64,000 nucleotides of DNA, taken from Klebsiella phage RCIP0009. The stretch lies in sequence record OR532803.1; one strand, given 5' to 3'. Both the position numbers and the translations under genes were made by a program. Shown here one piece after another: positions 3,933 to 8,842 of this stretch (position 1 is its first letter; every line of letters begins with the position of its first letter). The notes under the pieces were generated by a model. That model worked only from the letters and a program-made list of their open reading frames with translations. It ran no database searches and was not told the DNA's origin.

Positions 3933-4217
3933 TCAATGCAAGAAAGATTTCACGTACTGTTCGATCTTTTCACGACATGTATCAACTGAGGTGCTTTCCG
4001 CAATTACGGCATGACATAACGCCTCGCCTCCGACCCAGAAACTCATCATGTACTGAATATCACGACCTTCCATTTCTTTTTGATGCGCTTTGATTCGATC
4101 GAAAGCGTTTTCGATTGTTTCAGTAGCAGTAAGCATTTCGGATTCCCCGTCAACCTCCGCCAGTTCCCCATCGATCATTTCGCTTTCGACTTCTTCCCAG
4201 TATACTATCGTTATCAT
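3933..4217 (-). CDS. hypothetical acidic protein (94 aa)
   Basis: Tightly spaced downstream of paralog B. No motif. Confidence 0.45.
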   Translation of the reverse strand: MITIVYWEEVESEMIDGELAEVDGESEMLTATETIENAFDRIKAHQKEMEGRDIQYMMSFWVGGEALCHAVIAESTSVDTCREKIEQYVKSFLH

Positions 4218-4232
4218 GCATTACCCCAGTGG

Positions 4233-4703
4233 TTAACCGTCGTAATCCCCGCCACAATTCACATCGCCTTCAATGAACAGTTCGCGGTTATCACGTAATA
4301 AATTATACTTTCTTTCGAGTTCAGGCCCGAACGCGTCGGCGTCTTCATACCAGCTATAATTGTATCTTCCGCATTCATCATCATATTCTGGTTCATCGCC
4401 GCGTTCATTGAAGTGAACAATTTTGATATCGTCCATCCCCAGTTCTTTCAACTTATCCCAGATATACGAAATCTCAACGCTATGGGAACCGAACGCTTCC
4501 AGTGAGATCGTACCGTTGCTATCGACTTGAGGAATACCCCACTTCGAACGAGTATCATCGGTGATCATATCTATTAATGACTCAATATTATTCTCACCGT
4601 AGATATCAGCAACTTCCTTTTCTTTACCAGGGCGAACAAGTCCGATCCCGATAATAAAGCTACTGCTTGAGCTATTGCTCACAAACCCAGAACGAATTTT
4701 CAT
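4233..4703 (-). CDS. hypothetical protein, paralog B of the MKIRSGFVSNSSSSSFI family
   Basis: The first 19 codons and about 20 nt of upstream leader are near-identical to the gene at 8088-8603. The remainder is divergent. Confidence 0.6.
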   Translation of the reverse strand: MKIRSGFVSNSSSSSFIIGIGLVRPGKEKEVADIYGENNIESLIDMITDDTRSKWGIPQVDSNGTISLEAFGSHSVEISYIWDKLKELGMDDIKIVHFNERGDEPEYDDECGRYNYSWYEDADAFGPELERKYNLLRDNRELFIEGDVNCGGDYDG

Positions 4704-4858
4704 CGCATCACCATATTACCAATCATGAATAGAGGGATTAGCGCAAAGACGATACCCCATAGAATGACCTTATCTTCACGACGGTCACACCCATGATAGA
4801 TAACACCTCCAGCGAAAATCAATACAACAACTGAAACGAACGCGAATAAAGAAATCAT
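4700..4858 (-). CDS. small two-helix membrane protein (52 aa)
   Basis: ATGA overlaps at both ends (coupled to the 216-aa gene upstream and paralog B downstream). Two hydrophobic helices. It is absent from the ORF track because it is under 60 aa. Confidence 0.35.
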   Translation of the reverse strand: MISLFAFVSVVVLIFAGGVIYHGCDRREDKVILWGIVFALIPLFMIGNMVMR

Positions 4859-5505
4859 TTGCGGGTATCCATTCTCATAGAAACTTCTTTCAGGATCTTA
4901 TTCAGATCGTGAAGCGCATCTTTTACGTTACCTTCGTTATAGGTAAGCATATCCTGGTACAGCCCTTTCAAACAACGATTGATAACATATGCTTTTTCAG
5001 AAGGTAACATTGTTCCAGAACGATTATAATCTCTGAAAATGTCCATCATCGTGCCGTTGTTGCCAGGTAATGACGGGTTGAAGTTAACCATACCAGACAT
5101 CAAACTATCAACATACACAACTGTTGTGTTATCAGAACGATACGCGCCACCAACTTTAAACCAGTTGCTGAACACATACGGAGATTCCCGCACTTCGCTC
5201 AAATCGGTTCCGATTTCATCGATGTTTACACGAATGTTGTTAAAATACACCGATTCATCAATAGAACCATGACGCCATAAGATAGCACCATTGTTATTTT
5301 TGAATCCGACTACATCAACCTGCCAGCCGTTATCTGTTAACCGGACATCATCAACGACGATGAAATCAGGTAGCTGTGAATGAAAGCCGATGTTTTCAGG
5401 ACGGGAATTACGAAACCCATCACGATTGGAGAAATAAAGGATGTCGCCTTGATTCAGTTCGCATATATTCATAAGATTTTTAAAGTCCAATTCAAGTAAT
5501 TCCAC
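4855..5505 (-). CDS. hypothetical protein (216 aa)
   Basis: Minus-strand ORF following the hairpin at 5516-5537. No motif. Confidence 0.5.
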   Translation of the reverse strand: MELLELDFKNLMNICELNQGDILYFSNRDGFRNSRPENIGFHSQLPDFIVVDDVRLTDNGWQVDVVGFKNNNGAILWRHGSIDESVYFNNIRVNIDEIGTDLSEVRESPYVFSNWFKVGGAYRSDNTTVVYVDSLMSGMVNFNPSLPGNNGTMMDIFRDYNRSGTMLPSEKAYVINRCLKGLYQDMLTYNEGNVKDALHDLNKILKEVSMRMDTRK

Positions 5506-7760: not shown

Positions 7761-7767
7761 AATTTTC

Positions 7768-8088
7768 TCATTTATAGGTAAATTTTATTAAAATTTCGTT
7801 TACTTTTTTGCTAATAGTATCTAATGCATCATCGCATCCAAACTTACTACTCAACAATGAAACAAAATCATCCATCGTTGTTGTTTGAGACTCGCCAACG
7901 TCAAAAGACAGAGCGTAGGCAACAGGATTTTTAATCCTTACGATTTGAATAGTATACTCATTCAGATCAAACCGTTCAAGATATTTTCGCAAAGAAAATA
8001 AATCAATCGGTACTGGTAGAGTTTGACTAAACGTTATTTCTTCCCCCAGTTGATAGGGGGGCATTTTTACACAGATTTCGTATTCCAT
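7768..8088 (-). CDS. hypothetical protein (106 aa)
   Basis: One-nucleotide stop/start overlap with paralog A. Confidence 0.45.
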   Translation of the reverse strand: MEYEICVKMPPYQLGEEITFSQTLPVPIDLFSLRKYLERFDLNEYTIQIVRIKNPVAYALSFDVGESQTTTMDDFVSLLSSKFGCDDALDTISKKVNEILIKFTYK

Positions 8089-8603
8089 CAGTGATGACTC
8101 TTCATAGTGTGTTCCAGATTACGGAAAATTTGCCCATGTTCAAGCTGGGATTGGAATTCTCCGCATTCATCAGAGTAAGTAAATTCATAAATGAATACAC
8201 CGTCCTGATTGCCAAATTTAGAGTTGTACTCTTCATACAACCACATCTTGATCAGAGCGTCTTTCTCTTCTGTTTCCAGATCATACCAGTCACGCCCATC
8301 ATAAGCAAGCGCAATTTGAGGATTAGACCGATATCGAGTTTCGGCGCTATCTTCGGTTTCCCATTCATAACGCTTATCATCATAGTATGATTCGAAGCTA
8401 TTTCCCATATGACCGCCCAGGTCGCGGTGTACCTGCTGTACAACTTCTTCCGCTGTCGGGCAAGTCATCCAGCTATAACCACAGTTAGGAACACAGTCAC
8501 CCATCATTTCGCGGAGATTGTTGATATCAGTCGGATCCTTCGGGAACCGTACAATAAAGCTACTTGATGAACTATTGCTCACAAAACCAGAACGGATTTT
8601 CAT
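8088..8603 (-). CDS. hypothetical protein, paralog A of the MKIRSGFVSNSSSSSFI family (start taken at the internal MKIRSG Met)
   Basis: The N-terminus and leader are shared with the gene at 4233-4703. The stop of the upstream ORF overlaps this ATG by 1 nt. Confidence 0.6.
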   Translation of the reverse strand: MKIRSGFVSNSSSSSFIVRFPKDPTDINNLREMMGDCVPNCGYSWMTCPTAEEVVQQVHRDLGGHMGNSFESYYDDKRYEWETEDSAETRYRSNPQIALAYDGRDWYDLETEEKDALIKMWLYEEYNSKFGNQDGVFIYEFTYSDECGEFQSQLEHGQIFRNLEHTMKSHH

Positions 8604-8842
8604 TATAATTTCTCCCACTCAAACGTTGTGAAATGTTTTCTTTCGTCATACCCAACAGTACAACAATGTGTTGGCTTTCCTGTGAATCCATCAAACACAG
8701 TTATACAATAGTAATGCAAAGATGGAAGCGGTGTATGCTTAATGTAGTTGATCGCGACGTTCAGGTCAACAGTAGAACATACACAATCAGACGTTTGATC
8801 AAAACGGCCATCAAAAATCAACTCAATGCTATAGATGTTCAT
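8603..8842 (-). CDS. hypothetical protein (79 aa)
   Basis: Minus-strand ORF. No motif. Confidence 0.35.
   Translation of the reverse strand: MNIYSIELIFDGRFDQTSDCVCSTVDLNVAINYIKHTPLPSLHYYCITVFDGFTGKPTHCCTVGYDERKHFTTFEWEKL

Follow-up and report, generated by a model that had tools for sequence, protein, structure and literature searches.

Introduction

Enzymes that combine a radical S-adenosylmethionine (rSAM) core with a SPASM/twitch domain constitute a class which modifies ribosomal peptides and proteins post-translationally. In this article we analyzed a 64,000-nucleotide stretch of Klebsiella phage RCIP0009 (OR532803.1), called here the window, where two genes encode proteins of 171 and 156 amino acids (aa), NS171 and NS156, that open with the same residues (MKIRSGFVSNSSSSSFI), and where an rSAM/SPASM gene is found further upstream. 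According to the best-supported reading, to which we assign a probability of about 0.6, this enzyme is a maturase with multiple protein substrates, all of which carry the common N-terminus as a tag.

The closest described systems are the maturases of ribosomally synthesized and post-translationally modified peptides (RiPPs), such as PqqE/PqqA, MftC/MftA, the sactipeptide synthases AlbA/SkfB and QhpD/QhpC. These enzymes likewise have an rSAM core followed by a C-terminal Cys-rich auxiliary-cluster domain, and their genes adjoin, in the same orientation, those of small ribosomal products that have a short conserved recognition sequence and are variable elsewhere. Several paralogous substrates per enzyme occur as well, and for the logic of one enzyme and many substrates the prochlorosin-type multi-precursor clusters offer a parallel. 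The phage system differs from the RiPP systems in that its putative substrates are full-size proteins (80-430 aa) instead of short peptides, and the conserved element, the Ser/Asn-rich first 16 residues, may be the modified part and not a disposable leader. Furthermore, the tag contains no Cys, no RRE/PqqD domain was recognized in the phage enzyme, the system occurs in large phages only, and apart from the generic SPASM domain no curated Pfam/NCBIfam model reached the threshold for either partner.

anSME/AtsB and BtrN are also rSAM enzymes with SPASM/twitch domains: they oxidize a hydroxyl group, which belongs to a protein serine in the case of anSME and to a sugar in that of BtrN (an rSAM alcohol dehydrogenase with a twitch domain), and the tag offers six near-invariant serines. 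However, the anSME motif (C/S)-x-(P/A)-x-R is missing from the tag (MK[IVT]RxGFVSNSSSSSF), where no Ser is followed by Pro/Ala-x-Arg; the tagged proteins are not sulfatases, NS156 and NS171 having no PDB/Pfam matches, and the similarity of BtrN to the phage enzyme is weak. A third parallel is provided by the T4 internal proteins: IPI, IPII, IPIII and Alt share an N-terminal capsid-targeting sequence, so that unrelated proteins have an identical short N-terminus, and the phage studied here is T4-like. A literature search for the tag motif string and for phage rSAM/RiPP systems yielded no description.

Results

The shared N-terminus is a protein-level signal

A sequence-only reading of the window had described the two gene starts as 60-bp direct repeats which bracket a gene block. 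Its general outline was confirmed: the two open reading frames (ORFs) are on the same (minus) strand with a start-to-start distance of 3900 nt, share MKIRSGFVSNSSSSSFI and diverge afterwards, and between them the order of a 106-aa protein, a 738-aa vWA protein with DVSGSM, a 216-aa and a 52-aa protein is as it was given. NS171 is counted from the ATG at 8603, the same ORF being extendable to a GTG at 8618. The rest of the two proteins is unalignable; BLASTP of NS171 against NS156 gave no further similarity, and hhalign of the two family profiles restricted the match to residues 1-40.

At the nucleotide level the picture is different from the one drawn earlier. The repeat, said to be strictly conserved, has only 83% identity over 60 nt, and the longest exact run within the shared stretch is 14 nt. 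A leader and a ribosome-binding site were believed to be shared as well, but the similarity starts at the ATG, and the 30 nt upstream match at 9 positions, which is the chance level. Instead of 19 common codons there are 17 that encode identical residues, and from codon 18 on every codon pair is non-synonymous. Within the 51-nt shared stretch four synonymous differences are present (I3, G6, S11 and S13, the last being AGC in one copy and TCA in the other). The coupling of the genes by overlapping stop and start codons holds at 8088, 4858/4855 and 4703/4700, but not at the other junctions, where gaps of 7 nt (p106 to vWA), 38 nt (vWA to p216) and 15 nt (NS156 to p94) were found. The similarity of NS171 and NS156 is far beyond chance, and it is a protein-level signal, because the upstream DNA is unrelated and the differences inside the shared stretch are synonymous.

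The tag defines a phage protein superfamily

The "direct repeats" encode a 16-18-residue N-terminal protein tag with the consensus M-K-[IVT]-R-x-G-F-V-S-N-S-S-S-S-S-F-[IVC]-[IVLC]. Nothing but this tag unites a very large superfamily of small proteins (median about 134 aa), which is restricted to phages and in which the remainder of the sequence is hypervariable. Residues 1-17 were invariant in NS156 homologues down to 33% identity. An exhaustive hidden Markov model search with the NS156 family collected 977 clusters at 50% identity, the members of which are about 140-170 aa long, align end to end and finish with ...YGAGRNG; K2, R4, N10, S11, S12, S15, G151 and G156 are invariant in 127 diverse members. 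The NS171 family has the same N-terminus and another conserved C-terminus, ...YSDxDG..(M/L)EHG.IFRN..H...SHH, with D145, G148, E155, H156, S169 and H171 as invariant residues.

Scanning of IMG/VR for VSNSSSSSF retrieved 489 stretches, and 26 fetched loci outside the Slopek/Pseudoteven group were used as the tag-anchored set. These loci consist of tandem arrays with 2-13 tagged genes per 16 kb, each gene opening with the motif and then diverging completely. All 351 distinct proteins carry the tag at their very N-terminus, with the start codon invariably 6 residues ahead of F7. The position frequencies are M1 94% (most of the others have GTG/TTG starts), K2 99%, R4 99%, G6 93%, F7 98%, V8 96%, S12 99%, S13 90%, S14 80%, S15 98% and F16 94%, S9, N10 and S11 being fixed by the search pattern in this count; beyond position 18 no residue exceeds 24%. 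Once the tag was removed, BLASTP clustering distributed 383 proteins into 112 clusters (77 singletons). The "SHH" cluster, which includes NS171, is among the commonest ones (33 sequences, 37 loci), and NS156 belongs to the "GAGRNG" type.

The tag is under selection at the protein level. In a comparison of 384 tags from 88 loci the within-locus amino acid identity was 86%, the conserved residues had the same codon in 48% of the cases within and in 42% between loci, and all six Ser codons were in use. Since the tags of one array are alike in protein and their codon sharing is barely above the between-locus level, the tag is kept by purifying selection; gene conversion or recent duplication does not account for it. 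Identity at tag position 5 is 27% within a locus versus 14% between loci, which hints that tags could be co-adapted with the local enzyme. The variable positions 3, 5 and 6 tend to agree within one locus: all three genes of L132, a Melioribacteraceae contig from a metagenome-assembled genome (MAG), have MKSRN[FY]F..., all five genes of L035 have MKTRTGF..., and L128 can be cited as well. A 423-aa tagged protein with leucine-rich repeats (MKIRLGFVSNSSTVNF...) is encoded directly 3' of the rSAM gene at L130:2640-3911, so the tag can be attached to large repeat proteins.

A radical SAM/SPASM enzyme is linked to the tagged genes

Clustering of the ORFs of the 26 tag-anchored loci revealed exactly one recurrent non-tag family, an rSAM + SPASM enzyme that is present in 20 of them. 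The family is characterized by CX3-8CX2C, by PF04055 and PF13186 matches and by a weak, sub-threshold resemblance to peptide/metalloenzyme maturases; its member in the window is 40-46% identical to the tag-locus homologues (E-values 1e-77 to 1e-88). The Cys triad of the SAM cluster (C69, C77, C80) is invariant, with the spacing CX7CX2C in the window enzyme and CX3-8CX2C in the homologues, and PF04055 is above the cut-off for one homologue (31.5 vs 29.5). The auxiliary Fe-S domain was recognized by PF13186 SPASM at residues 286-357 of the window enzyme (28.0 bits, cut-off 21.5), and four auxiliary-domain Cys (C261, C286, C304, C356) are invariant in the family. TIGR04085 scored 24.6 for the window enzyme, below its cut-off of 27, the NCBIfam matches being sub-threshold only. 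The nearest solved relatives are BtrN and SkfB; the BtrN match (E 1e-5) covers mostly the twitch region.

The linkage was also found in the reverse direction. Among 71 enzyme-anchored IMG/VR loci, again outside the Slopek/Pseudoteven group, a search within 10 kb detected tagged genes at 65, many of them no more than a few hundred bp from that of the enzyme, so that candidate substrates are co-encoded with the enzyme whichever partner is taken as the anchor. The tag matches at these loci numbered 292 on the enzyme strand and 0 on the opposite strand. At several enzyme loci with zero tags, slightly variant tags directly adjoin the enzyme, and for one enzyme-less tag array the same contig encodes the enzyme at a distance of 80 kb (L016/L061). 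The phyletic distributions coincide too: in 50,697 phage records NS156 occurs in 175 and the enzyme in 173, with a nearly identical genus breakdown. In 185,579 prokaryotic species genomes the enzyme was met only 15 times, always on MAG contigs, 9 of which have canonical tagged genes adjacent; on these grounds the system looks phage-specific. The window represents a minimal, dispersed version of the tag/rSAM system, with one enzyme and two tagged genes, the enzyme gene being located on the same strand and, in transcriptional order, 19.4 kb before NS171.

At one further locus (L036:3848-6386; IMGVR_UViG_3300029288_000063) the rSAM gene is broken inside the Fe-S motif (...NNCRF / C-LPAGVPV... about 1 kb ...LLVHN / C-YKGN...). 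The interruption looks like an intein at the third cluster cysteine.

Structure and database searches of the tagged proteins

The AlphaFold2 (AF2) model of NS156 has a confidence score (pLDDT) of 91.6 overall and of only 53 for residues 1-10, which in the model would fit an exposed, flexible tail. S12-V23 is placed in a long beta-strand, and a second long strand is predicted at the C-terminus (143-155). The model fold has no informative match in PDB or BFVD. Pfam, NCBIfam and PADLOC searches with all seven module proteins returned nothing but the vWA domain, single-sequence and profile searches of the PDB with NS156, NS171 and the vWA protein gave no meaningful matches, and in PHROGs most of the families are listed as function unknown.

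For NS156 a weak resemblance to sulfatases over one stretch (E 0.5) was looked at and discarded. The assignment of NS156 as a head-tail adaptor (phrog_132, E 8e-10) was rejected, since neither the fold, which is not an adaptor fold, nor the genomic context, which is not a morphogenesis module, supports it. Automated annotations in PP889503 and PQ657795-PQ657830 call NS156 a "head-tail adaptor" (via phrog_132) and the vWA protein a "minor tail protein", and neither name is backed by the fold search or the gene context; our analysis corrects these spreading mis-annotations.

Discussion

The possible role of the tag

Gene linkage, the class of the enzyme and the position, flexibility and extreme conservation of the tag together suggest that the tag is modified, and that it might be the recognition or modification site of the enzyme or its substrate. 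In the proposed mechanism the rSAM/SPASM enzyme would bind the flexible, exposed tag and modify it chemically, and a single maturase would serve a diversifying set of tagged proteins. The invariant Ser and Asn residues would be the likeliest targets; Ser oxidation, for example to formylglycine, or a cross-link can be named as guesses. A broader proposal, to which we give somewhat less than even odds, is that of an undescribed modification system of large phages, where one rSAM/SPASM enzyme would alter a universal 16-residue tag and in this way activate or stabilize a diversifying arsenal (up to 13+ effectors per genome) for host takeover or counter-defence. The chemistry of the modification and the biological role of the tagged proteins are likewise proposals.

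If the maturase reading is true, it would provide a function for the unexplained "radical SAM protein" of RB43/RB16/KP15-type phages, and a large set of phage "hypothetical proteins" would become a defined family, with 977 50%-identity clusters in one subfamily and at least 112 clusters overall. In viruses, radical-SAM maturation would be extended beyond short peptides to entire proteins. Additionally, a ready experimental system would be at hand in Klebsiella/E. coli/Citrobacter phages, with one enzyme and two substrates, NS171 and NS156 being tractable in a cultured phage-host pair.

Several points weigh against tag maturation. The tag has neither a Cys nor the (C/S)xPxR motif of anSME substrates, and no known SPASM chemistry maps directly onto it. 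In the window enzyme itself Pfam Radical_SAM (PF04055) remained below the threshold and only SPASM reached it. The enzyme and the tagged genes of the window are 19-24 kb apart, not adjacent, and no partner was found in the flank at 6 of the 26 tag-anchored and about 6 of the 71 enzyme-anchored loci. Finally, the conserved extreme C-termini and the predicted strands 12-23 and 143-155 are also compatible with a tag that would be built into a shared structural or active site.

This last point leads to an alternative which we regard as unlikely: the tag might be built into a common, highly diverged fold as one of its structural or catalytic elements, and the tagged proteins might be partners, carriers or scaffolds in the rSAM pathway, or act on its product, without being substrates. 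For instance, an N-terminal strand and a Ser-rich loop could pack on the conserved C-terminus and form a ligand, phosphate or metal site. Besides the two long strands of the AF2 model, the conservation of many subfamilies to the last residue (GAGRNG, SHH, WYDG, GGY, HLG) is in line with this, the invariant D, E and H residues of the SHH subfamily are suggestive of a metal site, and invariant K2 and R4 would be expected for anion binding. Nevertheless, the C-terminal parts make up 112 unrelated clusters (45-430 aa) with Zn-ribbon-like CxxC proteins and the leucine-rich repeat protein among them, which speaks against a single fold; hhalign detected no homology past residue 40, and residues 1-10 of NS156 are flexible, low-confidence ones in the model. 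Still less probable in our view is that the tag is a sorting signal (T4-type capsid targeting, export, degradation or partner docking) and the rSAM gene is linked to it by shared regulation only, although identical N-termini on unrelated proteins recall the T4 capsid-targeting sequences, the tag stands at the very start of the protein, and arrays of hypervariable cargo are reminiscent of effector arsenals. The T4-type targeting sequence is about 10 aa long and ends in (L/I)-x-E, whereas at positions 19-30 of the tagged proteins no residue exceeds 24% and there is no conserved Glu, thus neither such a protease site nor any other conserved residue follows position 18. Unlike the T4 signal, the tag is conserved far beyond T4-like phages and is genetically tied to the rSAM enzyme. 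Large phages of very different kinds (contigs of 13-548 kb, and MAG bins of archaea, Patescibacteria and Treponema) carry it in near-invariant form, and a shared sorting receptor is unlikely because the capsid or scaffold proteins of such different phages would not share one. By inspection, the Ser-rich tag is too little hydrophobic for a Sec signal, and shared regulation leaves the 292:0 same-strand adjacency to one enzyme family unexplained. The N-terminal targeting signal which the sequence-only reading had offered as one option survives therefore as a protein-level tag fixed at the exact N-terminus, but it is tied to an rSAM/SPASM enzyme and not to a known targeting pathway. A pyruvoyl-type or Asn-Ser self-cleavage at SN/SS was considered too; it leaves the rSAM linkage unexplained.

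The two other options, an RNA-level or translational control element and direct repeats for gain or loss of the intervening cassette by recombination, can both be regarded as effectively refuted. Both copies are at translation starts, which speaks for a control element; however, besides the chance-level match upstream and the synonymous differences inside, the RNAs from -30 to +60 fold no better than shuffled ones (z -0.43 and +0.60), and synonymous sites are nearly saturated across the tag family. For recombination the copies have suitable geometry, being in the same orientation 3.9 kb apart, but with 83% identity and a 14-nt exact run they show no nucleotide identity beyond the coding need, and the same tag stands on hundreds of genes without such a cassette. 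The full block is present in all 110 records with a query coverage of at least 80%, and no relative was seen that lacks solely the inter-repeat segment. The comparison of related phages revealed that the vWA core occurs independently of the tagged genes and of the repeats. Pantoea phage Phynn retains p106-vWA-p94 and Yersinia phage JC221 retains p97-p106-vWA-p216-p94 at the same site beside gp25, while NS171, NS156 and p52 are absent from the examined loci of both; in JC221 no rSAM homologue is present in bases 1-72,000. In Slopekvirus Kpn35c1 (L144, OK631813.1:115429-118915) a single deletion of about 2.6 kb removes p216, p52, NS156, p94 and three more genes. Its ends lie just past the vWA stop and at gp25 instead of at the two repeats, so that gp25 is now directly followed by vWA, p106 and the retained NS171. 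This deletion was noted earlier, and the rSAM gene of Kpn35c1 was reported to be split (PMC9960720). From the gene content of the three phages it follows that the tagged genes come and go, not the cassette between them, and that the breakpoints are unrelated to the repeats.

The vWA block is a separate module

The p106-vWA-p216-p94 genes form a separate conserved module, which the tagged genes merely flank in Slopekvirus and Pseudotevenvirus; the vWA block is thereby split from the repeat phenomenon. p52 might be a companion of NS156 and not a part of the vWA block, since it is missing in every relative without NS156 (Phynn, JC221, Kpn35c1); it overlaps the NS156 start by 4 nt.

The vWA assignment of the 738-aa protein was right: PF13519/PF00092 are above the cut-off, the MIDAS motif (DxSxS...T...D) is intact, and D24, S26, S28, T97 and D128 are invariant or nearly so in 70 homologues. 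The N-terminal ~280 aa comprise the vWA domain and a beta-sandwich as in ArnB, Sec23/24 and ITIH. In contrast to these proteins, it has ~440 extra C-terminal residues without structural match and is spread over Ackermannviridae, Pootjesviridae, PBS1 and T4-like phages; its surroundings showed no AAA+/MoxR, FHA or kinase partner. The earlier remarks that it is outside the T4 core set and that recognizable motifs are lacking in its partners stand after Pfam, NCBIfam, PADLOC and PHROG scans.

A single system of vWA and tagged genes was considered and rejected. Phage records with the vWA protein number 503, versus 173-175 for the tagged protein and the enzyme. Ackermannviridae (Vi01), Rhizobium phages and Bacillus phage PBS1 are represented among the 503, their genera being missing from the organism lists of the tagged protein and of the enzyme, and there were no tagged ORFs within ~6 kb of the vWA gene in Vi01, PBS1, RL2RES and Phynn.

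Genomic setting

The window can be placed by its sequence in a KP27-like Klebsiella phage of the genus Slopekvirus: the region shares 99% identity with Klebsiella phage KP27 and with ~110 further Slopekvirus genomes, and Pseudotevenvirus/RB43-like phages (of Enterobacter, Cronobacter, Citrobacter and E. coli) have ~81% identity to it. All genes of the finding are on the minus strand, in an early/middle block bounded by gp25 and a Dcm-type methyltransferase (Table 1).

Table 1. Positions in the window of the tagged genes, the proposed maturase and their neighbours.
Feature	Position	Strand	Remark
gp25 baseplate gene	2461-2853	+	block boundary
p94 (phrog_7386)	3933..4217	-	member of the vWA-linked conserved block; retained in Phynn and JC221
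NS156, 156-aa tagged protein, "GAGRNG" subfamily	4233..4703	-	ORF, homologue alignments, AF2
Tag-coding segment, copy 2, 17 codons, 4 synonymous differences vs copy 1	4653..4703	-	
p52, small predicted membrane protein (52 aa)	4700..4858	-	overlaps NS156 start
p216 (phrog_7309)	4855..5505	-	with vWA in JC221; absent in Phynn; deleted in Kpn35c1
738-aa vWA/MIDAS protein	5544..7760	-	neighbour, outside the tag/rSAM system
p106, conserved vWA-gene partner	7768..8088	-	retained in Phynn and JC221
NS171, 171-aa protein, N-terminal tag MKIRSGFVSNSSSSSF, "SHH" subfamily (phrog_7397)	8088..8603	-	
Tag-coding segment, copy 1, 17 codons	8553..8603	-	
Dcm-type DNA cytosine-C5 methyltransferase, 303 aa	9874-10785	-	just upstream of the block
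Radical SAM + SPASM/twitch enzyme, KP27_176 homologue, 389 aa	27986..29155	-	proposed tag maturase

The homologues of the Dcm-type methyltransferase in Cronobacter phage leE and Yersinia phage JC221 each have a putative homing endonuclease as neighbour.

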